64,000 nt of DNA from Candidatus Caldarchaeales archaeon (GCA_039630085.1 JBCNVM010000007.1:1-64000), one strand, 5' to 3'. Shown: positions 1 to 63,348, counted from the stretch's first letter. The notes: a model not told the origin generated them from the sequence alone. Numbers and translations are program-made.

Positions 1-1
1 G

Positions 2-745: not shown

Positions 746-751
746 ACGGGC

Positions 752-5906: not shown

Positions 5907-5936
5907 CGCCCCTCCGCCGGGTAAAAAGCGCTCGAG

Positions 5937-7292
5937 TCAGAAGAGGTCGGGAATCGGTCTCCTCGAGAGCTCCAGGGGCCCGACCTTCCTCTCGACGAGC
6001 TCTACGATCGCCCTCGCGTCCTCCCTCGTGATCCTGGCCCTCCTGTCAGCCTCGAAGAGGAGTGCGTTGTGGATCTCCCTGCTGACGTACATCGACCCCA
6101 GCGCGGAGAGCAGGTCCTCCAGCCTCTCCGTCACCTCTGGGTCCTTCAGCGGCTCGGGCGCTAGGACGTCGAAGAACCTCTCCGCAGCTCCTAGCAGGGC
6201 CGCGTTCACGTCCACCCTGATCGGGTAGTCCCTGTCCCCGAACTTCGCGTAGGTCACCGCGACCGCGCTCAGCGACTTCAGCCCCTCAGCGACCTCCCGG
6301 ACCCTGTCCCTCATCTCGACGGGCAGCTTGAGCCTTACCTCAGCGTAGCCGTAGGGGTCTTCGGAGGCCTTCTCTATCATCTCCTTGAACCTAGAGGAAG
6401 GTCCTAGGAGCAGGGGAACCGTGTAGCCCTTTCCCTCCGCGACTCCCCTGAGGAGGTGGAGGTCCGTCGAGTCGGTCAGTCTCTCCTCGACCAGCGCCCT
6501 CAGCCGCTCCACAACCCTACCGTACTTCGCCTCCAAGCTCCTTGCAGCCCTGACCGCGCGCTGCGGCTTGTCTTTCGCGAGGTAGAGGAGCTTCTCGGCC
6601 GTCCTGAGGTCCTCGGCCTCGAGCAGCCCCGACCTCCTGAGCCTCTCGACCTCCTCGGAGAAGAGCTCGGCGACGCACCAGTCCCTAACGATGGAGGCCG
6701 ACGTCGTCTTGCTCATAGATGCCAGCGCGACCGACCTCCTCTCGCACTCGCCGATCAGGCCCGTCAGCTCCGAGTAGAACTCCAGGAGCGCCTCGCCGTA
6801 GCCCCTTGGCGCCCTCGCGGGAGTGATCGGCAGCGCGGAGCAGAGGCCGTAGAGGGAGCCGTCGAGGAGGAGCAGCCCGCCCCCCGGAAGCCACCCCAGC
6901 GCCCTCCTGGCCACCCTGAGCTCGAGGACCTTCATCAGCAGCCCCGCGTAGTCGGCCCTGGGCGGATAGGCCACCTCGCACCTCACCTCCCTCTCCTCGA
7001 TGTTCCTCCCGACCGCGAACGCTGCCGCGACGATCAGCGCCCCTCCGTTCCCGAGCCTGAGCCTCATCAGCCCTCCGTCGACCGCGACCGCATCGACGCC
7101 GGTGCTCCGGCCCTCGAGATCCGCGGGAACCCAGAGCCTCCTGGCCCTCTCCCCGATCTCCTCCGAGAGCGGGCCCCTCCTGCCCCTCAGGTCCCTCTCC
7201 AGCGAGCCTGAGTTCTCTCTCAGCCACTCCGCCAGCAGGTCGGCGACGAGGGCCATCTCGAGGCTATCGTTCAGGGCGCGGAGATAAGGCAT
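5937..7292 (-). CDS. nurA: NurA 5'-3' nuclease
   Basis: VAVDGG, LLLDGSL and SK motifs, C-terminal LFEADRRARI; first gene of herA-mre11-rad50 operon; start may be 7313. Confidence 0.88.
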   Translation of the reverse strand: MPYLRALNDSLEMALVADLLAEWLRENSGSLERDLRGRRGPLSEEIGERARRLWVPADLEGRSTGVDAVAVDGGLMRLRLGNGGALIVAAAFAVGRNIEEREVRCEVAYPPRADYAGLLMKVLELRVARRALGWLPGGGLLLLDGSLYGLCSALPITPARAPRGYGEALLEFYSELTGLIGECERRSVALASMSKTTSASIVRDWCVAELFSEEVERLRRSGLLEAEDLRTAEKLLYLAKDKPQRAVRAARSLEAKYGRVVERLRALVEERLTDSTDLHLLRGVAEGKGYTVPLLLGPSSRFKEMIEKASEDPYGYAEVRLKLPVEMRDRVREVAEGLKSLSAVAVTYAKFGDRDYPIRVDVNAALLGAAERFFDVLAPEPLKDPEVTERLEDLLSALGSMYVSREIHNALLFEADRRARITREDARAIVELVERKVGPLELSRRPIPDLF

Positions 7293-7585
7293 CGCTCGGC
7301 GGTCACCTCGCATCGGTGTCGACCCCGCGGAGCGCGGCGTGAGAATTCCGGGCTCTAAAGACGCCCGTCGACTGAAGGTCGTCGTCCCGTCGTAACTCTG
7401 ACCGGTGCCTCATCGAGGGCTAGTTGCTGGGGATCGGGGTCGACGCTCCGTGATCGATGCTTGAGATACCCCCAGATACTCTGAATTAGACCAAGGCACT
7501 TCGCTCTGGAACGTCGGGTCGTAGGCCGCATCGATCTCGGAGAATATACATATATTTCGTATACTGGGCTACGTCTTGACCGAGG

Positions 7586-9136
7586 ATGAAGGAGAACAAC
7601 TCGGGGACAATTTTAGAGATTAGGGGTCTAGTAAAGAGGTACCCTAACGGCGTCGTGGCGCTCGACCACGTGGACATTGAGATGAGGAAGGGGGAGATCC
7701 ACGCGATCCTTGGTGAGAACGGAGCTGGTAAGACGACGCTCATGAACATACTTTTCGGGCTTATACAGCCCGACGAAGGGGAGATCTACTTGGACGGCAG
7801 GAGGGTCGTCTTCAGGTCGCCCCTCGATGCGATAAACATGGGCGTCGGGATGGTCCATCAGAACAGGAAGTTAATACCCGCGCACACCGTGCTCGACAAC
7901 GTAATAATCGGACACCCGAAGACAGGGTGGCTTCTGGACAGGAAGAGGAGCAGGGCCGAGGTGGAGGAGCTGTGCAGGAGGTTCGGGTTCGACCTTGACC
8001 TCGACGCGCGGGTCTGGCAGCTCTCGGCAGGGGAGAAGCAGCTGGTCGAGATCGTCCGTGCCCTTTACAGGGGGGCTAAGATACTGATCCTCGATGAGCC
8101 GACGTCCGTGCTCACGCCGCCCGAGATCGAAAGCTTCTTGGAGTCCCTCAAGGCCCTCTCGAGAGAGAAGATCACTCTGGTCCCGTTCGTGACCCACAAG
8201 CTTCCGGAAGTCTTTTCGACGTGTGACAGGGTTACCATCCTCAGGAGGGGGAAGGTGGTCAAGACGCTTAACGTCAAGGAGGCCACTGCCAAGCAACTCG
8301 CAGAGTACATGGTCGGCAAGGAGGTTTCTCTCTCGATAGAGAGGCAGGACTCCAGGTTAGGACAGGAGATCCTGAGGGTCGAGAACCTCTCCGCGATGAA
8401 CGACAAGGGTCTCGTGGCCTTCAGCGGCGTCACCTTCTCGCTGCGCGAGGGCGAGATCTTCGGCATAGCGGGCGTCAGCGGGAACGGACAGCATGAGCTG
8501 GCAGAGACCATCTTCGGCCTGAGGAGGCCGTTGTCCGGCAGGATCCTCTACAACGACCGCGACATCACCAAGTCCTCCGTCCTCCAGCGGTTGCGGATGG
8601 GGATCGCATACATCCCGCCGGAGAGGTTGGGAGTTGCGGCGGTCGGCGAACTGAGCTTAGTCGACAACGTGTTGCTCATGTATTACTACGACGGTGCCGC
8701 GTCGAGGAGCGGGTTCATCAATTACAAGCTCATTCGGGAGCTAACGGAACAGATCATCTCCGAATACGGCATTGTCGCTCCCGGGCCCACTGCCAAGGCA
8801 TCGCACTTGTCCGGCGGAAACCTGCAGAGGCTCATCCTCGGCCGGGTCCTCTCTAGGAACCCGAAGGTCGTCATAGCTAACCTCCCGACGCAGGGGCTCG
8901 ACGTGGCGGCCGCCCAGTACGTAAGGAGGAAGCTGCTGGAGTGCAAGCAGCGCGGTGCCGGCGTGATCCTGATCTCGGAGGACCTCGACGAGATACTGCA
9001 ACTTAGCGATAGGGTCGCCCCCGTCTACGAGGGGCGTTTCGTCGACGTTCTTGATAACACGGCCCTCCGGAAGGAGGAAGTAGGGGCGATGATAGCGGGC
9101 GCCCACGCGGGGAGGGAGAAGGGCCTTGCTCAGTGA
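7586..9136 (+). CDS. ABC transporter ATP-binding protein, two ABC domains (nucleoside/CUT2-like)
   Basis: GENGAGKTT, LSAGEKQ, LILDEPT, second domain LSGGNLQR, ISEDLDE. Confidence 0.93.
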   Translation: MKENNSGTILEIRGLVKRYPNGVVALDHVDIEMRKGEIHAILGENGAGKTTLMNILFGLIQPDEGEIYLDGRRVVFRSPLDAINMGVGMVHQNRKLIPAHTVLDNVIIGHPKTGWLLDRKRSRAEVEELCRRFGFDLDLDARVWQLSAGEKQLVEIVRALYRGAKILILDEPTSVLTPPEIESFLESLKALSREKITLVPFVTHKLPEVFSTCDRVTILRRGKVVKTLNVKEATAKQLAEYMVGKEVSLSIERQDSRLGQEILRVENLSAMNDKGLVAFSGVTFSLREGEIFGIAGVSGNGQHELAETIFGLRRPLSGRILYNDRDITKSSVLQRLRMGIAYIPPERLGVAAVGELSLVDNVLLMYYYDGAASRSGFINYKLIRELTEQIISEYGIVAPGPTAKASHLSGGNLQRLILGRVLSRNPKVVIANLPTQGLDVAAAQYVRRKLLECKQRGAGVILISEDLDEILQLSDRVAPVYEGRFVDVLDNTALRKEEVGAMIAGAHAGREKGLAQ

Positions 9137-10208
9137 TACCCATTTCAGGATCAAGCTGGAGAGGCTCCCCACCTTATCCGGTTGGAGGGCCGTCAGGATA
9201 TCGCTTTACTCGATAGTGCTGTCGTTCCTTCTGTTCAGCAGCGTGTTGATATACGAGGGCGCCGATCCGCTCGTGGCTTACCAGAACATGTTCTCGTTCG
9301 CTTTCGATCCCAAGCTGGGACTCCCGCTGACCCTTCACAGGTCCATGCTGATCCTTCTGTGTACCCTCGCGTTCATCATCCCGTTGAGAGCAGGGCTCTG
9401 GAACGTGGGGATGGAGGGGCAGTTCTATCTCGGCACCATCGGGGCCTTCTTCTTAGCCTACACCTTCTCGACTTACTCCTCAGAGGTCCTGATGCTTCTC
9501 ATGATAGTGGGGGCAATGGGCGGAGGGGCACTCTACGGCGCCATCGCTGGGTTCTTACGCGGTCGGTACAACGTCAACGAGGTGGTAGTGACGCTCATGC
9601 TCAACAACATAGCGTTCTGGATCGTATACATGCTCGTGGTCGGAGGGCCGTGGGCTGGGATCGCCGAGTCGTCGAGCAGGCCGCTACCTACGTCCGCTCA
9701 CGCTCCGTTCATCTCCATAACGCCCATCACGAGCTACATCATCGTCGCACTCGCAGTGCTCGTCTTCCTCTTCCTCACCAAGACGACCTTGGGATTCAAG
9801 CTCCGGGTCCTAGGATATAGCCCCGTAGCCGCGAGGATTGCCGGCATAGAGGAGTTCAGGGTCTCTGTCCTCGTGATGAGCATAGGAGGTGCCTTAGCTG
9901 GTCTGGCCGGCTATCACATGTGGGCGGGCGATCCGGCATACTACATGATTCCGCGTCCGGAGGCTTACAAAGCGATAGGCGATCTGACCTACTGGGGCAT
10001 CATAATCGGGCTGATCTGCCTGCTCAATCCCATTCCCGCCATACCGGCTTCCCTCTTCATGGGCTCCGTCATAGTCGGCTCGACCGTGTTGGTGAGGAGG
10101 CTGCGACTGCCTTTCGGGCTAGATTTCCTGCTGCTGGGGATCATCTCGATTACCTTTGCCGCCTTCCAACTGTTCTACAACTACAGGATGCGGGTGATCA
10201 GGAAATGA
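9126..10208 (+). CDS. ABC transporter permease (BPD_transp_2, nucleoside-type)
   Basis: GLWNVGMEGQ, NEVVVTLMLNNI, multiple TM helices. Confidence 0.9.
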   Translation: MLSDTHFRIKLERLPTLSGWRAVRISLYSIVLSFLLFSSVLIYEGADPLVAYQNMFSFAFDPKLGLPLTLHRSMLILLCTLAFIIPLRAGLWNVGMEGQFYLGTIGAFFLAYTFSTYSSEVLMLLMIVGAMGGGALYGAIAGFLRGRYNVNEVVVTLMLNNIAFWIVYMLVVGGPWAGIAESSSRPLPTSAHAPFISITPITSYIIVALAVLVFLFLTKTTLGFKLRVLGYSPVAARIAGIEEFRVSVLVMSIGGALAGLAGYHMWAGDPAYYMIPRPEAYKAIGDLTYWGIIIGLICLLNPIPAIPASLFMGSVIVGSTVLVRRLRLPFGLDFLLLGIISITFAAFQLFYNYRMRVIRK

Positions 10209-11098
10209 TCGAGTTACCTCCGGCGATCTGGCCCTTCACCACTAGGGTCTTAGAGGTCTCAACGATCCTGCTTCTCGCTGCCGCAGGCGAGCTCCTCGTC
10301 CAGCGGTCGGGCGTGATCAACGTCGGTATCGAGGGCCTCATGCTGTTCGGCGCGGCGACGTCGTTCATGACCGCTCAGCTCTTCGGTCCGCTTCCGGGCT
10401 TCATCGCAGGCTCGCTCGTGGGGACCCTTCTGGGACTCTTCCACGCCGTGATGTCGGTCTCTTTGAGGGTCAATCAGATAATCAGTGGAATGGGGGTTTG
10501 GTTGTTCGCGATGGGTTTCGTAACTTACTGGGCTGACAGGTATACTGGTCCTCTCCGGACTTCGGTCCCGCGCATAGCCGGTCTAACTCCTGCCCTATTC
10601 ATAGCGCTCGCCGTAGTTTTCGTGATCTGGTTCGTGCTGAACAAAACGCATTATGGCTTGAAGATACGGTCCGTGGGGGAGAATCCCGCGGCCGCTGAGG
10701 TTTCCGGCGTCAATGTCAGTAGGATAAGGTACGTTTGCACGATTATCGGCGGCACGCTGGGCAGCTTCGCGGGATCGGTCCTGCTCCTTTCGTACCTCGG
10801 GGCCTGGAGTCATCTCCCCACAAAAGGACTCGGATGGCTGTCGTTCGGATTGGTCATGTTCTCGCTCTGGAGACCAGGGATACTGCTCGCCGGGGCGCTC
10901 GCCTTCGGCTTCGTCTGGCAGTTCGCGATCTCGCCCGAGTCCATCGTCCCCGGCTTCCCAGTCCCTCTACCTGTTAGCAGAATGCTTCCGTTCTTGGTGA
11001 CGGTAGTGATACTCACGATAATCTCGACCGAGCGGTTCAGGAGGAAATGGGCTCTGCTGAAACCTGAAGCGCTCGGACAACCATACATAAAAGAATGA
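10205..11098 (+). CDS. ABC transporter permease (BPD_transp_2, nucleoside-type)
   Basis: ATGA overlap with previous gene; RSGVINVGIEG, RSVGENPAAA, PEALGQPY. Confidence 0.9.
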   Translation: MIELPPAIWPFTTRVLEVSTILLLAAAGELLVQRSGVINVGIEGLMLFGAATSFMTAQLFGPLPGFIAGSLVGTLLGLFHAVMSVSLRVNQIISGMGVWLFAMGFVTYWADRYTGPLRTSVPRIAGLTPALFIALAVVFVIWFVLNKTHYGLKIRSVGENPAAAEVSGVNVSRIRYVCTIIGGTLGSFAGSVLLLSYLGAWSHLPTKGLGWLSFGLVMFSLWRPGILLAGALAFGFVWQFAISPESIVPGFPVPLPVSRMLPFLVTVVILTIISTERFRRKWALLKPEALGQPYIKE

Positions 11099-11124
11099 TG
11101 ATCCTGAGCGTATGTGACTCTGTT

Positions 11125-12471
11125 TTACTTCAGCAGCACTATGCCGTCCAGCATGAAGTTGAGCCTCGCGAGTAGAAATTCGTCTGTCGGCATCTCTTTT
11201 GCGGGCTTCACCACGGTACCCTTCGGAGGTACCTTCAGGTTGAGCTGCGGTATTTCGATCCCCTCGCCACTGCTGACCAGCTCGTTCTCATAGAACGGGT
11301 CCCAAGCGCCGCTCATCATCTGAGCCCTCCTGAGCTCTATGAGTTTCAGTACCCTCTCGGGGATGAGCGGTCTCGCCTTCGGGCTGATCGCCTCGAGCCC
11401 CACCTTCATATCGTTCTGTAGGTCGACTGCCGGCAACTTGGTCTGGCCTGGCATGATCGGATTGTTCTCCGGCAGCGAGATGTGTGTGTTCATGCCCAAG
11501 AAGTAGATCCTGTCGGGGTTAGTAGTGCCCGCGAGGTACTCCTTCAGGATCCGGTCGAAGAGGACCTCCCATCTGGTGTCGAAGGATACGGCAACCGTGT
11601 CGGTGGTAGACCACTTGTAGAGTCCCACCACGTCCGTGTCCTTACCTACGAACCAGATCTTTTTCTCCTCCGCGACCCTGAGGGGCTCGACCGAGTCCGT
11701 GTAATGGGTCAGGACATCGACCCCGGCGTCCACTAACGCAAGCGATACCTCCTTCTCCTTGGGCGGATCGAACCACTCGCCGACGTATTTGATGTACAGC
11801 GTCGCGTTAGGGTTAGCGTCCTTGATCCCCAAGTAGAACGCGGCCATCCTCCTGAAGTTCTGCACGGCTGCCGGCCCCACTGCTATGCCGATCTTGTTCT
11901 TGCGCGTTATGGCGCCTGCGATCAGTCCCTCGAGGTACATCGCCTGATACTGTCTGATGAAAACCCTCATGAAGTTCCTTCTCGAAGAGACGTCGCTCCC
12001 GACGATGCCGAGGAAGTAGACGTTGGGGTTTTCGTCGGCTATCCTGTGGAACGCGGGGACTGCCGCGGGCTCCCAGCTCCCGAAGATCACGTTGGCCTTG
12101 TTGACGGTGATCAGGTCCCTGGCCGACGATATCGGGTCCTTGCCCTTCAGGATAACACCCTCGTCGCGGACGTAGTCGAACCAGTTGTAGATCTTCTTCA
12201 GCCTCTCCGCGGCCATCACCTGGCGCCCGTCCCACGTCGAGCCCTCGACGTATCCTCCTAGGACCATCCCCAGAACGACCTTATTGGTCGCTTGAACCTC
12301 ACGGGTCACGGTTGTCGTGAAGGCCCTCGTCTCGGTCACAGTCCGAGCTGGAGCTGCAGAGCCCCCAGCGAAGTATCCCCCAACAGCTCCCACGACTCCA
12401 GCGCCAACGGCGGCCGCCGCGACCTTTCCGGCAGTCGAGATGGCCTCCCTTCTCGTTACCCTTCTAGTCAC
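11125..12471 (-). CDS. BMP-family ABC substrate-binding protein with Tat-like signal
   Basis: TRREAI twin-arginine plus hydrophobic stretch; YLEGLIAG, WFDPPKEKE; convergent on the permeases. Confidence 0.85.
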   Translation of the reverse strand: MTRRVTRREAISTAGKVAAAAVGAGVVGAVGGYFAGGSAAPARTVTETRAFTTTVTREVQATNKVVLGMVLGGYVEGSTWDGRQVMAAERLKKIYNWFDYVRDEGVILKGKDPISSARDLITVNKANVIFGSWEPAAVPAFHRIADENPNVYFLGIVGSDVSSRRNFMRVFIRQYQAMYLEGLIAGAITRKNKIGIAVGPAAVQNFRRMAAFYLGIKDANPNATLYIKYVGEWFDPPKEKEVSLALVDAGVDVLTHYTDSVEPLRVAEEKKIWFVGKDTDVVGLYKWSTTDTVAVSFDTRWEVLFDRILKEYLAGTTNPDRIYFLGMNTHISLPENNPIMPGQTKLPAVDLQNDMKVGLEAISPKARPLIPERVLKLIELRRAQMMSGAWDPFYENELVSSGEGIEIPQLNLKVPPKGTVVKPAKEMPTDEFLLARLNFMLDGIVLLK

Positions 12472-12514
12472 GCGAAACGCGCTCCGATGGTTTTATTTAA
12501 CCTTTTTACACTAA

Positions 12515-14839
12515 CTAATATCTTCGCCGACGAATAAGTTCATAAAGCTTGTGGGGCTGCAGCGGGCTCTCGAACGGGATGACGGAGTTGTCGAGTGCGT
12601 CCTGCACTGTCGAGGCGATGACCGCGGCGACCGGTATAGCCCCTGCCTCTCCCACGCCCTTCACCCCCAGCGGGTTGAGAGGGGACGGTGTCTCGATGTG
12701 CCTTATGATTATCTCGTTCGGCGTCTCGACTGAGGTCGGAACGAGGTAATCGGCGAAGCTCGCTGTCAGAGGCTGACCGTTCTCGTCGTGCACGATCTCC
12801 TCGAGCAGAGAGAACCCTATCCCGTTTGAAAGGCCTCCGAGGATCTGGCCCTCTACGATCATCGGATTTATGACTTTTCCGCAGTCGTGGACCACGACCA
12901 TCCGCAGTATCGTGATTGCGCCCGTCTCCGGATCGACCTCTACCTCGGCCGCTGCTCCTCCCGACGAGAACACTGAGTGTACCGGGCTGAAGTACTTCGT
13001 GGCCTCGAGCCCCGGCTCTCGCTTTATCAGGCCCCGCAGGGGACGGGCGCGCTCGGCGAGCTCTCCGAGGCCCATCGACTTGTCCGGTACCCCCTTGACG
13101 TAGACCCGTCCGTCCCTGAACTCCAAGTCGTCGGGACTGGTCTCGAGGATCTGCGCCGCGAGCTCCGCGGCTTTCCTCCTGACCTCCATTGCTGCCAGGT
13201 AGACCGCGTTTCCGGCTATGGTGGCAGACCTGCTGGCGAATGTGCCCACCCCCCATGACATCTGCGCAGTGTCCCCGACGGCCACGTCCACATCGTGCAC
13301 GCTCACTCCCAACGCCTCGGAGACGATCTGTGCCAAGGTGGTGGACTGGCCCTGACCCTGGGTCCCGACGCCCGTTGCGACGCTCACCTTGCCGGACGGC
13401 GTCACGGTCACTCTGGCCATCTCGTAGGGGCCCACTCCGGCTCCCTCAACGTAGAGCGCGAGCCCAAGCCCGACGAACCTGCCCTCTCTCCTGTACCTCT
13501 CCCTGCGTTCGGGCCAGCCTCTGTAGTCTATCGCGTCCAAGAGCGTCTCGAGGAGGAGCGGGTAATTCCCGCTGTCGTACTTCACCGGCCCTCCGTCCTG
13601 ATAGATTATCCCGGTGTCGTACGGGAACTCGTTGGGCTGGATGATATTCCGCCTCCTTATCTCGGCCCTGTCAAGTCCCAACCTGTGCGCCGCCACGTCC
13701 ATCATCCTTTCCATCACGTAAACGGCTTCCGGTCTTCCGGCGCCTCTGACCGGGCTGACGATGGTCTTGTTGGTGTAGACCGACGCGAACTCCACGTCGA
13801 ACGCGGGTATTTTGTATGGTCCGGGCATCGTCCCTGTTGTGATGATCGGCACCATTATTCCATAGGGTGTGTAAGCTCCAGTGTCGACTAGGAAACTGTC
13901 GCTCAGTCCTAGTATCTTCCCGTCCCTGCTGAAGGCTGCCCTCACGTAGTGGACCTGTATCCTCTGCTGGTTGGCCGCCACCATATACTCCCGCCTCTCC
14001 TCTATCCACTTGACCGGACGGCCCAGCCTGATCGCCGCGAAGGGGACTAAGATCTCCTCGGGGTAGAACAGCATGATCTTCGGGCCGAACCCACCCCCCA
14101 CGTCTGGAGCTATCACCCTCACCCGATTCTCGGGAATGCCGAACAGCTTCGCGAGTCCGTTCCGGATCGGAATTGGGGCTTGGGTGGAGTCCCAGACCGT
14201 CAGATAACCCGACTTCTCGTCGTAGTGCGCCACCACACCCCTGGTCTCTATGGATGCCCCCGCGCCCCTGTTGAAGACGATTCGCTGCTCTATCACGAGG
14301 TCTGCGCGCCGGAAGGCCTCGGAGACGTCTCCGACCCTCACCCTATGTCGGGCTGCTATGTTGTTGGGCACGTCGTCGTGTACGAGCGGAGACCCGGGCT
14401 GAATCGCCCTCTCAACGTCAACGACTGGTTCCAGCGGATCGTATTCCACAGATATCAGCTCCAACGCGTCCCTTGCGACGTACTTGTCCTCGGCTACGAC
14501 CATCGCGATCGGTTCCCCCACGTAACGCACCTTGTCCTTCGCTAGCGCGTAGTGGGTCTTCATGTAGGGTATCGGATATTGAGGCAGCGGGGTGATCGAG
14601 GGTGGAAGCGGTCCGTTCAGGGGCCCTAAGTCCTCGGCCGTGTAGACCGCCGCTACCCCGTCCAGCCTCTCGGCCCCCGACTTGTCAATCGAGACTATCC
14701 TCGCGTGGGCGTGGGGACTTCTCAGGATTGCAGCGTAGAGCATTCGTGGGAGGACGATGTCGTCAACGAACAGGCCCTTGCCCGATAGAAGCCTCCCGTC
14801 CTCCAGTCTAGGTACGGAGGCTCCTATAATTTTCTTCAT
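12515..14839 (-). CDS. Xanthine dehydrogenase/CoxL-family molybdopterin-binding large subunit
   Basis: LRSPHAHARI, VGGGFGPK, VRGAGRPE, GQGQSTT, FASRS, GQILGG, KGVGEAG; ATG at 14839. Confidence 0.93.
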   Translation of the reverse strand: MKKIIGASVPRLEDGRLLSGKGLFVDDIVLPRMLYAAILRSPHAHARIVSIDKSGAERLDGVAAVYTAEDLGPLNGPLPPSITPLPQYPIPYMKTHYALAKDKVRYVGEPIAMVVAEDKYVARDALELISVEYDPLEPVVDVERAIQPGSPLVHDDVPNNIAARHRVRVGDVSEAFRRADLVIEQRIVFNRGAGASIETRGVVAHYDEKSGYLTVWDSTQAPIPIRNGLAKLFGIPENRVRVIAPDVGGGFGPKIMLFYPEEILVPFAAIRLGRPVKWIEERREYMVAANQQRIQVHYVRAAFSRDGKILGLSDSFLVDTGAYTPYGIMVPIITTGTMPGPYKIPAFDVEFASVYTNKTIVSPVRGAGRPEAVYVMERMMDVAAHRLGLDRAEIRRRNIIQPNEFPYDTGIIYQDGGPVKYDSGNYPLLLETLLDAIDYRGWPERRERYRREGRFVGLGLALYVEGAGVGPYEMARVTVTPSGKVSVATGVGTQGQGQSTTLAQIVSEALGVSVHDVDVAVGDTAQMSWGVGTFASRSATIAGNAVYLAAMEVRRKAAELAAQILETSPDDLEFRDGRVYVKGVPDKSMGLGELAERARPLRGLIKREPGLEATKYFSPVHSVFSSGGAAAEVEVDPETGAITILRMVVVHDCGKVINPMIVEGQILGGLSNGIGFSLLEEIVHDENGQPLTASFADYLVPTSVETPNEIIIRHIETPSPLNPLGVKGVGEAGAIPVAAVIASTVQDALDNSVIPFESPLQPHKLYELIRRRRY

Positions 14840-15046
14840 ATGACGCCGGTCATTGATTCTATTATTTATGTTTATTCTTTGATATAATAGTTTTGCAGTC
14901 GTATGCCACATCGGAGGCGGTTCGCGTCTTCCCGTTCCACTGCTGCAGCAGGGCTCGCCTCGAACGCCGTCATGATGCGATTCTTTGCGCGGTCTCCGGG
15001 CCGAACTCGCGAACCTTTTTCCCGGAGAGGGAACGCGTAGCGCGCG

Positions 15047-15898
15047 ATGAAGTCCGGCGCGCTGAGCTACGACGAGGGCTACAGGCTGCTGTCGGAAGGC
15101 GGCGGAACCGTCGAGGCTCTGGGGAGCAGGGCGGCATACGTGAGGACGCCCTCCGAGGATGTTGTGATACTGACCGATCGACCTCTGACGCGCTATTCGG
15201 TCTCCCTCTTCGACTCTTGGGAGGACTTGAGGAAGGTCATCGAAGTGGGCGACCGCGTCTCGATCGAGCGGTCGACGCTGACGATCGGAGCTGAGCTCCG
15301 CGTGCCGTTGAGGGTACGGGGTCTCTGTTCGAGGGTGACGGGCCGCTCTGATCTCAGCCCAGAGTCCCTGAGCTCGGCGATCAGTTATTTCCGGGCGCTC
15401 GCTTCAGTCGACGAGCGCGACCCGGTTGTGGAGCGAGGCGTAGAGATCCTCAGGAGCAGCGCGAGTGCCGACGCTCTCTGCGAGTCCCTTAAGGAGGTCG
15501 TCGGAAAGGGCAGGGGGTACACGCCGGTCGGCGACGACTTCGTTTCGGGGGTCATGGTGGCCTTCAAGTTACTTGGCCGCGAATCTGACTTCCGTCCGCT
15601 CGTAGAGTTCGCAAAGTCGCGTTCGAGGTGGCCCAGCTGGAAAATGATGGAGCACTCCCTTCACGGGTGCACATTCCTTTCGGTCATGTCGCTCTGTGCC
15701 TCGATCGCAAAGGGGTCTGACCCAACTCCACATGTGATGAGTTCACTTAGGATGGGCAGCTCAACGGGGCTTGCCGTTTTGACAGGGCTTTTTGAGACGT
15801 TGTTTTTGTATTACAGGAGTTTGTCTAATATGTTTTTGAGGTCGTCCTCGATTTCCGCAGGTGGGCTCCATTCGACGTCGACGACTTCCACACCCTGA
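15047..15898 (+). CDS. DUF2877 protein (YlbF/AllH-like oxamate carbamoyltransferase subunit)
   Basis: GKGRGYTPVGDDFVSG and MGSSTG motifs resemble DUF2877 (GxGxGLTPxGDD ... GHTSG); next to FdrA and DUF1116. Confidence 0.8.
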   Translation: MKSGALSYDEGYRLLSEGGGTVEALGSRAAYVRTPSEDVVILTDRPLTRYSVSLFDSWEDLRKVIEVGDRVSIERSTLTIGAELRVPLRVRGLCSRVTGRSDLSPESLSSAISYFRALASVDERDPVVERGVEILRSSASADALCESLKEVVGKGRGYTPVGDDFVSGVMVAFKLLGRESDFRPLVEFAKSRSRWPSWKMMEHSLHGCTFLSVMSLCASIAKGSDPTPHVMSSLRMGSSTGLAVLTGLFETLFLYYRSLSNMFLRSSSISAGGLHSTSTTSTP

Positions 15899-15962
15899 CT
15901 TCGGAGGCTCTCGGAGAATATTGACACGCCGATGCAGAGCACCTTTCCGATCCTCTCCGGCG

Positions 15963-17510
15963 TCATGTCACCTCACTCAGGACGAACCTCTCGATTAAGT
16001 GATGGAGCACCGATGCGTCCTCCTCCGCGCACGCCGCTGCGAACGCCGCGGTCACCGCGTTGGAGCCGGTGGTTATGAGCGGGTACTTCGAGAGCTCCCG
16101 TGTTTGATCCCATTGGGGGTCTTCGCCGGTTCCGACGACCCTCGCCGAGACCCTCTTGCGCTCTCCGGTCGCTAGCGCAGGCCCGACCTCCTCCAAGGTC
16201 CTCGAGACTGCGTCCACGGGAGCTCCGTACCCGATGATCAGGTCGAACGCGATCGATCCTGTCTCTGGTGATGCCAGCTCTTGAGTTATCCGCCTGTTCC
16301 TCAGCGACGGGTCTATTATCGGATGAACTCTTCCGGCGGTGAACTCCTCCGACCCGTAGTCAACCACGGTCGCCCCCCTAGAGCGCAGCGGATCGTCTAG
16401 CTTCTTCGTCCAAGGCAGCTCCAAATTCGAATAGACCTCGATCCCCGCCTCGCTCCACAGGAATGCCGTCTCGGTCGCAAGCGTTCCGCCGCAGTAGAAT
16501 CCGCGGGGATGACCTCCTCCGTCGACCTTCTCCTTGAGCGAGGTCACCTCTCTCTCCAGTGCCGAGAGGGCCTTGCTGTAAGCCTGAGGTGAGACGAGAG
16601 AGCAGGCCTTCAGCGCGGTCGCGTGGAGTGTGGGGAGTTGCGGGTGCTCGCTGATCTTCTCCTTGTGTCCGAGAAGGCAGAGCAGCAGGGGCTTGCCGAT
16701 CTTCGCGTCTTCGAGGACCCGTTTCACGAGTTCCGCATCTGACTGCTTGGCCAGCAGCACGATGACCTTCGTGCTCCGGTCTCCGTCGAGGAGCCTCAGC
16801 GACTCGCGCGTCATCAGCCCTCCCACGGCTCTGGTCATGTCGCGTCCTCCCACTCCGATCGCGTGAGAGATGCCCACTCCCATGTCGTGTAGTATGACCG
16901 ACAACTCTTGGATGCCTGAGCCGGATGAGGCCACTATCCCCACCGGGCCCCTGATGACCCTGTTCGCGAACCCGAAGCCCACGCCCCCAATTATCGAAGT
17001 CCCGGCCTCCGGCCCCATCACTAGGAGGTTCCTCGCGGCGGCCTCGCGCTTCATCGCTACCTCCACCTCTATCGGGACGTGATCGCTGAAGACGAAGAGG
17101 TTGACTCCCCTCTCGAGGAGCTTGAATGCGACGTCCTTCACGTGCTGTCCGGGTATCGATATCGATGCCATTCTTATGTCCGGGTTCTCGTGCAGAGCGT
17201 CGTCTATGCTCGCGTATCTGGCGGTCCGGGGCTTCATCTGGAACAGGACCTCTCTCGCCTTCCTCAGGACGCCTTCCGTCAGCCCGACTCCCTTAAGTGC
17301 GATCACGATATCGTTTGGTCCTGCACGGTCGCCCTCCGGCGTGAGGATCCCCTGCGACCTCAGGAGCTCCTTATTGGCTTCGGTGGCCATGACGACCGCG
17401 ACCTCGATCACCCCGGGCAGCCTCTTGATCGCCTCGGAGGCTTCCATCAGCTGCACCGAATCCCGATAAAGGCCTTGCACTACCAAGTTGATTACGTCAG
17501 TTGAACCCAC
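15963..17510 (-). CDS. fdrA: FdrA/AllF-like protein (succinyl-CoA synthetase alpha-like fold)
   Basis: YRDSVQLM, MATEANKELL, FSDHVP, LLVMGPEAGT, GVGGRDM, GFYCGGTLA, FTAGRVHPIIDP; start approximate. Confidence 0.88.
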   Translation of the reverse strand: MGSTDVINLVVQGLYRDSVQLMEASEAIKRLPGVIEVAVVMATEANKELLRSQGILTPEGDRAGPNDIVIALKGVGLTEGVLRKAREVLFQMKPRTARYASIDDALHENPDIRMASISIPGQHVKDVAFKLLERGVNLFVFSDHVPIEVEVAMKREAAARNLLVMGPEAGTSIIGGVGFGFANRVIRGPVGIVASSGSGIQELSVILHDMGVGISHAIGVGGRDMTRAVGGLMTRESLRLLDGDRSTKVIVLLAKQSDAELVKRVLEDAKIGKPLLLCLLGHKEKISEHPQLPTLHATALKACSLVSPQAYSKALSALEREVTSLKEKVDGGGHPRGFYCGGTLATETAFLWSEAGIEVYSNLELPWTKKLDDPLRSRGATVVDYGSEEFTAGRVHPIIDPSLRNRRITQELASPETGSIAFDLIIGYGAPVDAVSRTLEEVGPALATGERKRVSARVVGTGEDPQWDQTRELSKYPLITTGSNAVTAAFAAACAEEDASVLHHLIERFVLSEVT

Positions 17511-17572
17511 AATCGATGCGATCTGAAAGTGCAATATTTATATTAGTGTTCCGAGGCGTGATGATCGCGACC

Positions 17573-18370
17573 ATGTCTGCCGTTGTAGATCTGTCAAAGG
17601 TAAAAATATATGACTTATCCCAGCCGACCAGCGCGAGAGCTCCGCCCTTCATGTACTACCCTCCGTTCAAATGGACGTGGATCAAGAGGCTCGGAGAGCA
17701 CGGCGTCAACGCGCAGTACATCGAGGGACCGCTTCACACGGGTACGCACTTCGACGGCCAGCTGCACTTCATGACGGGAGGGAAGGACATGGCCAGCATC
17801 GACGTCAGCTACTTCATCGGGGAGGGGATCATAGTTGACATCAGCAAGCGCGTCGGCGACTACGACATCTACACAAGCGACATGATCGAGGAGGCGGCGA
17901 GGGAGGCAGGCCTCCGGATAAAGCCCGACGACATACTGCTCATCTACACGGGTTACAGCCGTTACGCGTGGTGCGGTCCCGAGCCCGACGAAGTGCGGTA
18001 CATGTGTAAGCACCCGGGCCCCGACATCAGGTTCGCGAGGTGGTGCATCGAGAAGAGGATCAGGTGGCTCGGCGTCGACGCGATGTCGCAGGACCACCCT
18101 CTGAACACCGTCGTCAGGAGGGCGAGGCCCGACCTGGTAGCGGAGGCCGAAAGGAAGTGGGGAAAGAAGATCGACGAGGTGCTGCCCTGGCCCGAGAACT
18201 ATCAGGTGATGCACACGATGCTTTTCCCGAGGATGATCCTTCATGTCGAGAACCTAGGAGGGGACATCGACAAGGTCGTCAACAAGAGGTGCCTGATCAT
18301 AGCGCTGCCGTTCAAGTTCGAGGGAGGAGAGAGCGCGTACTGCCGAGTGGTGGCCCTCACCTCGGAATGA
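17573..18370 (+). CDS. Cyclase-family metal-dependent amidohydrolase (KynB/isatin hydrolase-like)
   Basis: HTGTHFDG metal motif, DILLIYTG, LGVDAMSQD, HVENL, GGESAYCRVVA. Confidence 0.88.
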   Translation: MSAVVDLSKVKIYDLSQPTSARAPPFMYYPPFKWTWIKRLGEHGVNAQYIEGPLHTGTHFDGQLHFMTGGKDMASIDVSYFIGEGIIVDISKRVGDYDIYTSDMIEEAAREAGLRIKPDDILLIYTGYSRYAWCGPEPDEVRYMCKHPGPDIRFARWCIEKRIRWLGVDAMSQDHPLNTVVRRARPDLVAEAERKWGKKIDEVLPWPENYQVMHTMLFPRMILHVENLGGDIDKVVNKRCLIIALPFKFEGGESAYCRVVALTSE

Positions 18371-18376
18371 GCAGGC

Positions 18377-19639
18377 ATGGAGACGCTTAAGGAGGAGATC
18401 GAGAGGGCGAACGATAAGTGCCTCGATCTGATGATGGAGGCGAGGCCCCTCCTCGTGGACATCGTAGAGGCGCGGAAGGTCATACCCTTCCTCGCGAAGG
18501 ACAAATGCCTCACGCATGCGGGCCCGCCGATTAGCTGGGATAGGGCCAGCGGCCCCCTGAGGGGCGCGATAATCGGAGCCGCGATCTACGAGGGCTGGGC
18601 CGAGAACGAGAGAGAGGCGATCAGGCTGGCGGAGAGGGGTGAGATAGTCCTCGAGCCCAATCACCATCACTCGGCGGTCAGTCCCATGGCCGGCGTCATC
18701 TCGCCGTCGATGAAGGTCTTCGTGGTCAGGGACGGTGACCTGAGGACTTACAGCAACCTCAACGAGGGGCTCGGTAAGGTCATGAGGTACGGCGCCTACT
18801 CCCCCGACGTTTTGGACCGCCTCCGCTTCTTGAACGAGGTCGTCGGCCCCGTTCTCTCCGACGCGGTGAAGGAGTACGTCCGTGATAAGGGGGGAATGGA
18901 TCTGAAGAGCATAATGGCCCAGGCGGTCCATATGGGCGACGAGTGTCACAACCGGAACATTGCCTCGACTTCCCTGTTCTACAGAGAGATATCGTCCTAT
19001 GTTATCGACTCGACTGACAAAGAGACAGCAAAAATTGTGCTTAAGACGATCGACTCTAACATCTTATTCTTCCTTAACATGGCAATGGCGGCCTGCAAGC
19101 TGATGGCCGATAGGGCCCACGGCGTCAAGTACAGCACGATCGTGACCACGATCGCGAGGAACGGCACGGACGTCGGCATCAGGGTGAGCGGGCTCGGAGA
19201 CCAGTGGTTCACAGCTCCGGCGACCATACCTAGGGGTCTGTACTTCTCAGGGTTCAGCGAGTCCGACGCAAACCCCGACATAGGCGACAGCACGATAACC
19301 GAGACAGTCGGGCTCGGTGCGGCCGCTTTGGCGGCGAGCCCGGCGATCGTGAGGTTCATCGGCGGGGACGCGAAGACGGCGATCGAGATCACCAACAGGA
19401 TGGCGAAGATCTGTCACGGCAGGCACCGCTACTTCACGATCCCCTATCTAGAGTTCGAGGGTACCCCAGTTGGGATAGACATCAGGAGGGTTCTGCGACT
19501 CGGTCTTCCGCCTGTGGCCGACACGGGCATAGCGCATAGGGAGGCCGGAGTGGGGCAGATAGGCGCAGGGATCGTCGAGCTGCCGATCGAGCCCTTCAAG
19601 CAGGCCCTGAGGAAATACGCCGAGGCCTACGGGATCTGA
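18377..19639 (+). CDS. DUF1116 protein (YlbE/YahG/AllG-like)
   Basis: HAGPPI, PMAGVISPSM, NEGLGKVMRYGA, MGDECHNRN, ARNGTDVGIRVSG, DIGDSTITET, GQIGAG. Confidence 0.9.
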   Translation: METLKEEIERANDKCLDLMMEARPLLVDIVEARKVIPFLAKDKCLTHAGPPISWDRASGPLRGAIIGAAIYEGWAENEREAIRLAERGEIVLEPNHHHSAVSPMAGVISPSMKVFVVRDGDLRTYSNLNEGLGKVMRYGAYSPDVLDRLRFLNEVVGPVLSDAVKEYVRDKGGMDLKSIMAQAVHMGDECHNRNIASTSLFYREISSYVIDSTDKETAKIVLKTIDSNILFFLNMAMAACKLMADRAHGVKYSTIVTTIARNGTDVGIRVSGLGDQWFTAPATIPRGLYFSGFSESDANPDIGDSTITETVGLGAAALAASPAIVRFIGGDAKTAIEITNRMAKICHGRHRYFTIPYLEFEGTPVGIDIRRVLRLGLPPVADTGIAHREAGVGQIGAGIVELPIEPFKQALRKYAEAYGI

Positions 19640-19727
19640 ACACGACAGCCCTCTGTAGGGCCCTTCGCCAATCGATCAGCCGACCGGAGCCTTAGTCGGA
19701 CCTCTCGCCGACGAGCAGGGCTGTTCT

Positions 19728-19751
19728 GTGGACCGGGCGGGATTCGAGCCC
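19728..19751 (-). repeat. 24-bp copy of tRNA-Ala 3' end (att-like fragment), inverted relative to the tRNA at 21876
   Basis: Minus strand GGGCTCGAATCCCGCCCGGTCCAC versus tRNA 21926-21949 GGGTTCGAATCCCGCCCGGTCCAC (23/24 identical). Confidence 0.9.
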
Positions 19752-19844
19752 AGATTTACTCACCGGCTTTCCTTATTACTCCGAAAAAAGGTAGGTAAGT
19801 TCACAGAAAAAGTTATAAATTTCTACGTGCAAGGGTTTATAATA

Positions 19845-20714
19845 ATGAGCAGAGTATTCCATAATACAATCGCCCTCATAATGGATTGTGACGATACGCT
19901 GTGTGAGGACACCACTGACGCGTGTCTAAAGCAGATCGGAATAGAAGATCCTCTGGAGGACTTCTGGAAAAAGAGAGTAAAACCCAAGGTCAAAGATGGC
20001 TGGGACCCGCCACTAGCGTATATGACCGAATTCATAAATGTGGCCAAGGAAAAAGGTACAAAACTCACAAAGGATTTTTTGAGAAAGTAGGACGAAATCT
20101 GAAATTTTATCCCGGAGTTCCAAACTTTTTCGATGAGTTAAGGAATGAGGTCAAAGCTATTAGCAACGAGTACGAAATCGACATAAGGATTGAGTTTTAT
20201 GTTATTAGCTCAGGTTTTGAAGAGGTCATAACGGCGAGTCCTCTAAACTCCTATGTAACCGAAATTATGGATGTACATTTTACATTGATGAAAACGGTCG
20301 TGTAATATGCCCGAAATCGATAGTAACGTTTACGGAAAAAAAAACAAATTTGTGTTCGCGATAAACAAGGGCATTAACAAGATGATTTTACGAAGTGACC
20401 CTGGTAGAGTTAATGACACGATAAGTGAGGAGAATAGAAGGATTCCCTTCAAGAACATGATCTACATAGGAGACGGACCAACAGACATACCCTGCTTCTC
20501 GCTTATCACAAGGAACGGGGGGCGAGGATTAGGAATTATACAGCCCGAAAAGCCAGAAAGGGGGGCTCCATTATGGAAAGGACGAAGAATAACTGTGGGA
20601 CCGTACCGCCCTAATTATGAGCAAGGATCAGACCTCCGACTTATGATAAAGGCTTTGATAAGAGACATCTCAGCGAGTATTTATGAGGAGTCGAAAATGT
20701 CATATCGCCCGTGA
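19845..20714 (+). pseudogene. HAD-superfamily hydrolase, frameshifted
   Basis: IALIMDCDDTL (motif I), FYPGV, YVISSG and YIGDGPTDIPC lie in different frames; apparent single-base frameshifts near 20085, 20266 and 20340. Confidence 0.8.
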
Positions 20715-20766
20715 CATTCATTAACAAATAGATGTCGTCGCGATCTCGATCGAATAAACCATCATT

Positions 20767-20879
20767 ATTTTATAAAATTCTCGTAGAGCGGAGCACGTTG
20801 ACCTATCCTGTTAAATACGTAGACGAAACATCGCATACTCGACGCATTCGGAAAAATCATTTACACTATTTTATAAAAT
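20767..20879. repeat. Two copies of perfect 12-bp palindrome ATTTTATAAAAT
   Basis: Copies at 20767-20778 and 20868-20879, each preceded by T. Confidence 0.85.
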
Positions 20880-21875
20880 GTTGAATACAGTATAGAGAGC
20901 TAATTTTATTTTAGCATTAGTGACTGATTTTAAGTGTTGTTTTGTTGATCGCTCTTCCTTTCAGTATACTGGTCGCAGCATTTGGTTAAACCTGTCCGGA
21001 GGAAAAGGCAAGTCGTTTCGGTGGCTTCTGGGTTTGGATTAGCCATGGGGTTGATAGGTGGAATTTTCGGACGCGGGTTGGGCTGCTTACATAGTTTACA
21101 ATAAGGTCATCTGGGATTATTTCGTTGTTGGCTGTTCATAGTTTGTGACATTATAATAATTTAGAGAACTACAAGAAAGATCTCACGTCGTCTCAAGCTT
21201 GTGGAACGGGAGGTTCGAGGGTAACTGTTCGAGTTTTGACGGCTCGGTGGGAAATGGTCTGCCGAAGCTGTGGAAACATCCCGACACTAAGCTTTAGAGC
21301 GTATAACATCTGTGGTTCAAGGCTCTACATGGAGAGATAGGTGTAAAATACCCTGTCTGCAAAGGTTCCCTATCCTGCACCACAGAAACCGTTTGAAAGG
21401 AAGGACAGAACAGGCTCTTAGAAGAATAGCAGATTGTGTGAGGAGATTTGGGACACCCGGATAACCCTAAATCGTGTTTCAGTCTCGCTCAAAAAGCTCA
21501 TCAGAAAGTTCTTGAAATTGATTTTTCTGATTTACGGTAACAACCAGCTTTTTCGTTGAGAAAACCTAAACGCTATAGTTGTGAAGATGTCTGTGAATAC
21601 TGAGAGATGAGGAGGTTGGAGAGGAAAACGCAGTCTCAGAGGTGCCGAAAAGTGTCTCTGAAGAGCGTTGATCGGGAAGTTGCGTTCGCCTTGCTTCCTG
21701 ACAGCGACAGTATTATCACTTCGGCGTTGATACTCCTGAGAAATCTGGCTCGAAATAGTCAACCCGTCACAAAAGGATGTGAGACGAAAAAAGCAGGAGT
21801 CATAGGAACGAATTAAGGCGGAGAAAGCCCGATTACATTAAAACTAAAATTCTCCGAGTGAGAGATGCGATAAGG

Positions 21876-21951
21876 GGGCCGGTAGATCAGCGGTATGATC
21901 GCCCGGTTGGCGTCCGGGAGGTCGCGGGTTCGAATCCCGCCCGGTCCACCA
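21876..21951 (+). tRNA. tRNA-Ala(GGC), CCA encoded
   Basis: Acceptor GGGCCGG/CCGGTCC with G3:U70, anticodon arm CCCGG-TTGGCGT-CCGGG, T arm GCGGG-TTCGAAT-CCCGC, ends ACCA. Confidence 0.97.
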
Positions 21952-22052
21952 ATCCTGTGATGCAATAAGGGTAACCATGAAGAGGGAAAAATAGAGGAGG
22001 AACGCTTCGTCGGATTCTCCTCAGAGTTCTTCGGAAGCATCTGCACCGAAAT

Positions 22053-23132: not shown

Positions 23133-23244
23133 TTCCTTTCACCTCCGGGGGTCGAACTCCCTTCCCCGAGCAGGAAGAAACCCTCCCGCATGGGCAGGAG
23201 GGTCCCCCTGTCGAGGGCCAGACCACCTGAGGGGTGAATTTAAG
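23133..23244 (-). promoter_or_regulatory. Putative promoter and structured 5' leader of the LAGLIDADG gene
   Basis: TATA-like CTTAAATT at 23244-23237, four near-contiguous hairpins at 23217-23147, SD at 23146-23139. Confidence 0.55.
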
Positions 23245-23317
23245 CCTCGCTAGCGGCGTCGGTCCGAGACCTAGGGAACGGGATGGGCTTTATCCGGCAG
23301 GAGCTCGGCGACCGGTC

Positions 23318-24659: not shown

Positions 24660-24759
24660 ACCCCGCTCGGGGTCGGGGCTCAGCCTTTAACGTGTCGCCG
24701 CGGCCCCCGGCGATCCTAGCGGCGCGGAAACTCAAATCTCCGGGCATCGAGGTGGATCC

Positions 24760-63319: not shown

Positions 63320-63326
63320 GGATACA

Positions 63327-63333
63327 ATAAAAA
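63327..63333 (-). terminator. U-tract terminator of the BMP gene
   Basis: T-run on the minus strand shortly after the stop at 63349. Confidence 0.45.
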
Positions 63334-63348
63334 AGGGAGTGAGGCAGT

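Follow-up and report, generated by a model that had tools for sequence, protein, structure and literature searches.

In the classical oxidative pyrimidine pathway, uracil and thymine are broken down by uracil/thymine dehydrogenase, barbiturase and ureidomalonase. Uracil dehydrogenase is an enzyme with molybdenum (Mo), flavin adenine dinucleotide (FAD) and iron–sulfur (FeS) cofactors, and barbiturate and ureidomalonate are established intermediates of the route. Isatin hydrolase is known as an opener of lactam rings, and form I carbon monoxide (CO) dehydrogenase carries the loop motif AYxCSFR with a copper-binding cysteine. Here we analysed a stretch of 64,000 nucleotides from Candidatus Caldarchaeales archaeon (GCA_039630085.1, JBCNVM010000007.1:1-64000), hereafter the window, in which a gene island at 7586-19639 encodes a cyclase-family hydrolase, the large subunit of a Mo hydroxylase, an ATP-binding cassette (ABC) importer, and homologues of FdrA, YlbE and YlbF, all three subunits of the oxamic transcarbamylase of Escherichia coli. 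In PMC11326118, the three E. coli genes together are reported to encode this enzyme (AllFGH), which converts oxalurate to oxamate and carbamoyl phosphate, and the enzyme is described as characterised in E. coli only. Comparison with related loci suggests that the island is most likely the archaeal version of a nucleobase-catabolic module with wide conservation. Its genes very probably form one heterocycle-catabolic pathway, with import followed by Mo hydroxylation, ring opening by the cyclase and cleavage by AllFGH. Within this design we tentatively put forward an energy-conserving oxidative route for uracil and thymine, a reading that falls just short of probable. The genes and positions that an earlier reading of the DNA alone (the original prediction) had listed were all recovered by an open reading frame (ORF) list and by Pfam and NCBIfam scans.

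The AllG/DUF1116 homologue (18377..19639, + strand; PF06545, 295 bits) shares 46% identity with E. coli YlbE over 418 residues in BLASTP, and matches PDB entry 3clq with an E-value of 2e-102. The AllF/FdrA homologue (15963..17534, - strand; PF00549 and PF02629) shares 32% identity with E. coli FdrA across 476 residues (BLASTP; PDB 3dmy, FdrA, E-value 7e-54) and scores 320 bits with NF004760, whose cut-off of 433 is not reached. The AllH/DUF2877 homologue (15047..15898, + strand) scores 62.3 bits with PF11392 against a cut-off of 25, and aligns with YlbF of E. coli K-12 through a 35-residue motif alone (BLASTP, E-value 2e-4). In AllF, no GHAGA-like loop corresponding to the phosphohistidine loop of succinyl-coenzyme A (CoA) synthetase was evident, the alignment to the alpha subunit of that synthetase ending before the region. 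The chemistry expected from the likeness to AllFGH and the carbamate kinase AllK would be phosphorolysis of an N-acyl-urea to carbamoyl phosphate, and thence ATP.

The gene context differs from that in E. coli, where the genes follow allD, allC and allE and then comes the kinase. The island contains neither allB, allC, allD, allE nor a carbamate kinase gene; the cyclase and the Mo hydroxylase stand in place of the All partners, and the kinase is encoded on another contig. No match to AllC, AllD or AllE turned up in the host genome, an assembly of 66 contigs that totals 1.41 Mb and has a completeness of about 90%. A match to the allantoinase model on contig C34 (389 bits against a cut-off of 358) was reassigned to dihydroorotase, since dihydroorotase models score above it and pyrE adjoins; the search for a canonical allantoin pathway elsewhere found none in this genome. 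The original prediction had the usual partners missing, which holds for the island but not for the genome as far as carbamate kinase is concerned: a gene for it on contig C2 (413 bits, cut-off 358) lies directly 3' of a coxMSL operon. Among the 41 relatives searched, carbamate kinase was present in all 11 in which AllG was found and in 10 of the 30 others.

The gene for the PF04199 cyclase-family metal-dependent amidohydrolase (17501..18370, + strand; 122.9 bits, profile match from 17582) ends 6 bp before that of AllG, the spacing that had been read from the DNA at the outset. Its HxGTHxDxxxH metal motif is intact, aligns to those of isatin hydrolase and KynB, and is invariant across the subfamily. 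An AlphaFold2 model of the cyclase (predicted local distance difference test score 87.4) was compared with solved structures via Foldseek, which ranked isatin hydrolase A (5nmp) at the top with a TMq of 0.69, followed by KynB (4co9) with a TMq of 0.61; kynurenine formamidases lay at about 0.61, and the Foldseek probability was 1.00 for 5nmp, 8f9x and 4co9. The island cyclase thus has the fold and motif of isatin hydrolase and KynB, but shares only 18-24% identity with them, and its subfamily possesses invariants of its own, such as D198-H199-P200 (window-protein numbering). We also considered whether the protein is a plain kynurenine formamidase, an identity that would have spoken against the original prediction. 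This was ruled out by its score of 43.8 bits with the arylformamidase equivalog TIGR03035, far under the cut-off of 223.05, and by isatin hydrolase being the closest fold. Chloroflexota have the cyclase in a tandem form, about 557 residues long, that contains two PF04199 domains (23 loci, e.g. L035, L040, L042, L043, L046 and L048), and AllH is usually undetected in the operons that carry this two-domain form.

The third component, the molybdopterin large subunit of the XDH/CoxL family (12515..14911, - strand; PF01315, PF02738 and PF20256), probably starts at the Met at residue 25. Its closest solved relatives (498-524 bits) are CoxL (8uem), 6-hydroxypseudooxynicotine dehydrogenase (7dqx) and quinoline oxidoreductase (1t3q), from which it is about equally distant. 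With form II-like CoxL, quinoline 2-oxidoreductase and 6-hydroxypseudooxynicotine dehydrogenase it shares the three-domain Mo subunit and the RGAGR loop; it differs from these enzymes in having no close characterised member and in being encoded without M and S subunits in this island. Its best NCBIfam name, 'aerobic CO dehydrogenase large subunit group 5', comes with 913 bits, slightly under the cut-off of 950, and the score with TIGR02416 is 568 bits where 991 would be needed. The name CO dehydrogenase was dropped, for the active-site loop of the island protein reads PVRGAGR instead of the CSFR copper loop. As RGAGR is common to all 40 orthologues compared, the island CoxL is not a form I CO dehydrogenase.

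Orthologues of the island CoxL, at 45-62% identity, account for 37 instances in the loci of the module, and the bacterial ones have CoxM, CoxS and CoxG adjacent. A second, unrelated CoxL lineage, for which XdhA or 4-hydroxybenzoyl-CoA reductase is the best model, is found together with AllFG and the cyclase in another 32 instances. The association of two CoxL lineages with the module argues that the pathway requires a Mo-hydroxylation step, whichever lineage supplies it. The host genome encodes five CoxL paralogues and three CoxS proteins, including a coxM-coxS pair without an L gene on contig C8, which may provide the partners of the lone L subunit of the island. On contig C2, a complete coxM-coxS-coxL set (C2:10203-14857, locus L006) is followed by the carbamate kinase gene and then by a 6-phosphogluconate dehydrogenase gene, and constitutes a second link in this genome between a Mo hydroxylase and carbamoyl-phosphate metabolism. 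The C2 CoxL is only about 33% identical to that of the island; nor is it an orthologue of the other lineage, with about 28-35% identity to both types.

To describe the neighbourhood in other genomes we used two locus scans. In the AllG-seeded scan, an AllG alignment was compared with one genome per prokaryotic species and the best 80 of at least 583 stretches were taken; in the cyclase-seeded scan, a cyclase alignment was compared with metagenome contigs, with the best 80 of at least 599 matches. Of the loci from the AllG-seeded scan, 37 extend 5 kb or more to each side of AllG; among these, AllF was present in all 37, the cyclase in 33, a CoxL-family gene in 28, and the cyclase together with CoxL in 27. 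The metagenome loci from the cyclase-seeded scan that were 8 kb or longer gave a similar picture (AllG 36/50, AllF 35/50, CoxL-family 33/50, CoxS 28/50). AllG and the cyclase are direct same-strand neighbours in 59 loci, and their median spacing is 6 bp in the eight loci where, as in the window, the cyclase comes first. Nine further loci came from relatives: seven have the cyclase beside AllG/AllF, and three an orthologous CoxL (63-90% identity). At the genome level, co-occurrence of AllG and the cyclase is near-perfect. A phylum sample of 401 genomes contained AllG in 28, the cyclase subfamily (threshold at least 369 bits) in 25 and both in 24; the exceptions were four genomes with AllG alone, one of them with a fragmented AllG and another with a partial cyclase match, and one with the cyclase alone. 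Retention of the cyclase and the Mo subunit beside AllFG, on which the original prediction had staked its pathway, is therefore seen in the majority of loci, across several bacterial and archaeal phyla.

ORF clustering further revealed that the genes are arranged in one operon, all in the same direction, in Chloroflexota, Acidobacteriota, Gemmatimonadota, Thermotogota, a Nitrosomonadaceae metagenome-assembled genome (MAG) and several archaeal lineages. A cultured Thermomicrobium (L045) is among the carriers. One order is family-III CoA-transferase (CoAT3)-AllF-CNhydrolase-AllG-(two-domain cyclase)-NmrA-CoxM-CoxS-CoxL-CoxG-permease, and another is CoxM-CoxS-amidase-AllF-AllG-cyclase-CoxL. These observations bear on the possibility that the island genes share no pathway at all, the CoxL being an unrelated dehydrogenase for CO or an aldehyde, the cyclase a formamidase, AllFGH acting on oxalurate from elsewhere, and the neighbourhood a by-product of island assembly. 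The four transcription units on both strands into which the window genes fall, the Mo subunit without partners, and the 913-bit CO dehydrogenase name would fit such a reading. It is nonetheless very improbable: the same gene set occurs as single operons in several phyla, AllG and the cyclase keep company genome by genome, all 40 window-type CoxL proteins carry RGAGR rather than the copper loop, the cyclase fails the arylformamidase model by a wide margin, and the genome yielded no AllC, AllD or AllE.

Three other observations were made in these loci. A trio comprising a GNAT-fold protein of about 245 residues, a thiolase-like protein and a DUF35/ChsH2 OB-fold protein recurs beside the module (L145, L157, L178, L186 and other loci; c16 in 18 loci); the GNAT-fold protein has no Pfam match above threshold, and has Atlas neighbours named N-acetyltransferase. 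In Candidatus Caldarchaeum subterraneum, the GNAT-like gene sits between those of AllH and CoxL. In genome G021, a relative from the same taxonomic order, AllG is split into two short fragments (C3:50164-50644; L016 and L017) and the cyclase subfamily was not found, which looks like decay of the module.

Given the two scans, the accessory genes of the module loci provide pointers to the substrate, and the substrate assignment is drawn entirely from those in conserved operons. NCS2 permeases occur in 18 loci, with a uracil permease as the best specific NCBIfam model for 8 of the 11 tested, and NCS1 permeases in seven. An Amidohydro_3 gene is present in 12 loci, including L125 and L126, the close relatives of the window island; cytosine deaminase is the best model in two of the three members scanned (246-265 bits), while in L125 a generic amidohydrolase model scores 231.6 bits and cytosine deaminase 230.6. 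A uridine phosphorylase gene lies immediately 3' of the cyclase in L105 (284 bits, cut-off 280). Beside AllF/AllG, an amidase and a CN-hydrolase are each encoded in 24 loci. Genes for a family-III CoA-transferase, with succinate-glutarate and mesaconate CoA-transferases as best NCBIfam models, occur in 31 loci, for an MmdA-like carboxyltransferase in 17 and for OAD_beta, the beta subunit of a Na+-translocating decarboxylase, in five, and PrpD and ICL-family genes in a few. These accessory genes more likely point to pyrimidines and a (methyl)malonate end product than to parabanate. In L021, L023, L028, L129 and L130, the OAD_beta and MmdA-like genes adjoin AllG, which suggests that energy is conserved at a decarboxylation step too.

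Based on these pointers, we propose a putative model for the pathway, in which all substrates and reactions are predicted ones. A nucleobase would first be imported by the Bmp-type ABC system. The CoxL-type Mo hydroxylase would then oxidise uracil or thymine at C6 to (5-methyl)barbiturate, with FAD and FeS subunits supplied from another locus, for example the C8 coxM-coxS pair. Afterwards, the cyclase would open the ring to give ureido(methyl)malonate, an N-acyl-urea whose functional group is that of oxalurate. AllFGH would cleave this compound by phosphorolysis into (methyl)malonamate and carbamoyl phosphate, from which the C2 carbamate kinase would form ATP, NH3 and CO2. An amidase and a family-III CoA-transferase encoded on contig C65 would convert malonamate to malonyl-CoA, and a final decarboxylation would yield acetyl- or propionyl-CoA. 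Every conserved gene of the operons would find a place in such a scheme. Since ureidomalonate would be phosphorolysed and not hydrolysed, the route would yield ATP and need no urease.

This model is reminiscent of the classical oxidative pyrimidine pathway in its proposed Mo-dependent step from uracil to barbiturate and in its intermediates barbiturate and ureidomalonate. It differs in the ring opener, which would be a PF04199 cyclase and not a member of the AtzD/barbiturase family, and in the fate of ureidomalonate, which is hydrolysed to urea and malonate in the classical pathway and would here be phosphorolysed to carbamoyl phosphate and malonamate. For ring opening and for ureide cleavage, the classical enzymes would accordingly have non-homologous, energy-conserving replacements. 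The AtzD/TrzD barbiturase family PF09663 had no match in the genome, and the control genomes were likewise without a match.

The original prediction had proposed the same general logic of import, Mo hydroxylation, ring opening and AllFGH phosphorolysis, which conservation upholds, and had chosen as its example the opening of a parabanate-like ring to oxalurate, which is not favoured. In PMC5703782, parabanic acid is reported to turn into oxaluric acid spontaneously at neutral pH with no enzyme, and the accessory genes point to pyrimidines instead. In its full form, this alternative holds that a five-membered ureide, either imported or arising from damage (parabanate-like, for instance from oxidised urate or guanine, or a Mo-oxidised hydantoin), is opened by the cyclase to oxalurate, and that AllFGH is a true oxamic transcarbamylase. 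The homology of AllF/G/H to the E. coli enzyme that converts oxalurate, with AllG at 46% identity, agrees with it, as does the closest fold of the cyclase, that of an enzyme opening a cyclic alpha-keto-amide; moreover, oxamate and oxalate could be handled by the amidase together with the CoA-transferase, which has a likeness to oxalate CoA-transferases too (286 bits). We nevertheless consider it decidedly unlikely. An oxalyl-CoA decarboxylase gene was not identified in the loci, the decarboxylase of the MmdA/OAD_beta type and the methylcitrate-cycle genes would have no role, and the transporters and side enzymes look pyrimidine-directed. In addition, E. coli AllG differs from the others phylogenetically: in an AllG tree of 117 rows it stands alone on a long separate branch, the remainder being cyclase-linked genes.

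Several observations weigh against the pyrimidine route. Sampling in both scans is biased in favour of proteins related to those of the window, and related genomes among the loci are not independent. The uridine phosphorylase is the sole pass among the pointers: all transporter and deaminase scores lie under their equivalog cut-offs, that for cytosine deaminase being 438 bits. Three of the 11 NCS2 permeases tested are xanthine-permease-like, four loci encode PucR-type 'purine catabolism' regulators, and the closest solved relative of the island's binding protein is an atrazine-binding protein. The two CoxL lineages are unrelated, and therefore their substrates may differ. AllH, which is part of the E. 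coli enzyme, was detected in a minority of bacterial operons, many of the related ones being without it. The island encodes the L subunit only, with no CoxM (FAD) or CoxS (2Fe-2S) gene adjoining, and because it has no amidase, CoA-transferase or carbamate kinase gene either, several steps depend on unlinked genes. Finally, the genome encodes a dihydropyrimidinase, so another pyrimidine route may exist.

Some of these observations would be explained if the same three steps acted on another N-heterocycle, such as xanthine, urate or an as yet unrecognised natural one, perhaps differing by CoxL lineage. The PucR-family regulators, the xanthine-like permeases, the resemblance of the other CoxL type to XdhA or 4-hydroxybenzoyl-CoA reductase and the atrazine-binding relative all lean in this direction. 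Hydrolytic opening of xanthine or urate is expected on chemical grounds to give alkyl- or vinyl-ureas and not acyl-ureas. The amidase, the dicarboxylate CoA-transferase and the (methyl)malonyl-CoA-type decarboxylase would also be left without an obvious role, and uracil-type permeases are the majority. A different context is seen in nitrifier MAGs, where, according to PMC12625717, allFGH and allK lie beside triuret/biuret genes and bmpA-nupABC, again in line with another substrate. Taken together, we regard another heterocycle as unlikely, though a more serious contender than parabanate, and retain oxidation of uracil and thymine as the preferred reading.

The unlinked genes invoked for the last steps of the pyrimidine route lie on contig C65, where a CoAT3 that is 48% identical to the operon-encoded ones adjoins an amidase that shares 58% identity with the one encoded next to AllF in L020. 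The surrounding stretch (C65:63486-73070, L122) encodes a carboxyltransferase, a LIV-type ABC transporter with Peripla_BP_6, the CoAT3, the amidase and a family-I CoA-transferase subunit, and the CoAT3-amidase pair resembles the pair inside bacterial module operons. On contig C45 (C45:19900-25700, L108-L110), an adenine-deaminase-like gene is located beside a dihydropyrimidinase/D-hydantoinase gene (445 bits, cut-off 393), with further amidohydrolase-like matches nearby; this stretch may serve nucleobase or hydantoin metabolism as a locus of its own.

The importer genes occupy the left part of the island. The ABC ATPase (7586..9136, + strand) contains two ABC domains (PF00005 twice) as in importers of the CUT2/BMP type. 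Its best NCBIfam model, 'putative B6 ABC transporter ATP-binding protein', gives 451 bits, with the cut-off of 670 not reached, and homologues with 57-59% identity are encoded in the bacterial module loci L032, L035 and L063. The first permease (9126..10208, + strand; BPD_transp_2, PF02653, 113 bits) is 43-46% identical to those of L035 and L063. The second (9920..11098, + strand; BPD_transp_2, PF02653, 110 bits, domain from residue 109) probably starts after 9920, because the listed ORF overlaps the preceding gene by 289 bp. The Bmp/PnrA-family substrate-binding protein (11125..12471, - strand; PF02608, 88.8 bits) is 45-48% identical to its counterparts within bacterial module operons, and its closest solved relatives are 6pi5, named 'atrazine periplasmic binding protein' (E-value 5e-20), and 3s99. 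A Bmp binding protein, a two-domain ATPase and two BPD_transp_2 permeases together make up a predicted importer of the Bmp/PnrA type, and Bmp ABC systems are found in 18 module loci. A second Bmp-type ABC importer is encoded at 61290-64000 and runs on to about 64368 of contig C64; identity to the island proteins is 33-34% for the permeases and 26% for the binding protein.

In the open literature searched, we found no description of a cluster of the cyclase, AllFG and a Mo hydroxylase, or of a route from barbiturate to carbamoyl phosphate; subscription journals and supplements, such as Figs S12 and S15 of PMC12625717, lie outside that literature and may bear on the point. The module joins nucleobase catabolism with chemistry of the oxamic-transcarbamylase type, both of known kinds. 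It is conceivable, though somewhat less than probable, that it represents a fifth, ATP-yielding pyrimidine route with a wide distribution among Chloroflexota, Acidobacteriota, Gemmatimonadota, Thermotogota and thermophilic archaea, in which the cyclase is a barbiturase analogue and the linked AllFG(H) a ureidomalonate (acyl-urea) phosphorylase, with carbamoyl phosphate (and hence ATP) and malonyl- or methylmalonyl-CoA as products. If so, DUF1116, FdrA and DUF2877 would gain a function outside enterobacteria, as would a large PF04199 subfamily and many of the 'CoxL-like' genes that are routinely annotated as CO dehydrogenase in MAGs of thermophiles and Chloroflexota. Nucleobase nitrogen and carbon would be recovered with a substrate-level gain of ATP and without urease, and CO dehydrogenase labels on these genes would lead to too much CO oxidation being ascribed to Aigarchaeota/Caldarchaeales and many Chloroflexota.

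The nearest named AllG proteins belong to Candidatus Caldarchaeum subterraneum and to Nitrososphaerota/Aigarchaeota MAGs. The original prediction had spoken of a hyperthermophilic archaeon; the archaeal part agrees with these relatives, Candidatus Caldarchaeum/Nitrososphaerota MAGs being the nearest named, and matches in hot-springs metagenome runs point to a hot-spring archaeon. Window DNA was matched in three DNA runs, all of a single hot-springs metagenome study, with no RNA run among the matches. The contigs of the host have a mean guanine-plus-cytosine (GC) content of about 0.64-0.66. In 1-kb windows, GC is 0.559-0.626 over 7001-20000, compared with 0.662-0.681 at 1-7000 and 0.661-0.683 at 23001-25000, confirming the visibly less GC-rich 12-kb block that had been noted beforehand (0.56-0.63 against 0.66-0.68).

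Comparison within the genus showed that this block is an accessory island, since it is carried by one genome and missing from another. In G003 the whole block is kept, with 86% identity over 14.1 kb, whereas in G004 nurA, a tRNA-like match and the triosephosphate isomerase gene all lie within about 1.8 kb with no island there. The island extends over about 14.5 kb from nurA to tRNA-Ala, and the indel polymorphism fits insertion and deletion alike. No integrase domain was found in the ORFs scanned, no convincing direct repeats flank the island, and Rfam reported no RNA family besides the tRNA. Directly to the left of the island lies the archaeal DNA-end-resection operon rad50-mre11-herA-nurA (752-7313, - strand). 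The right flank consists of an AT-rich stretch, tRNA-Ala(GGC) (21876..21951, + strand; ARAGORN and Rfam), the right-hand marker of the variable region, a LAGLIDADG_3 ORF of 359 residues (22053-23132, - strand; Pfam), and then the triosephosphate isomerase gene. Two small ORFs without a Pfam match (19728-20090 and 20307-20714) lie within the AT-rich stretch, which takes in the tRNA and the LAGLIDADG_3 ORF as well. With a GC content of 0.40-0.51 at 19640-23200 in a genome of 66% GC, this stretch may be the remnant of a mobile element bordering the island.

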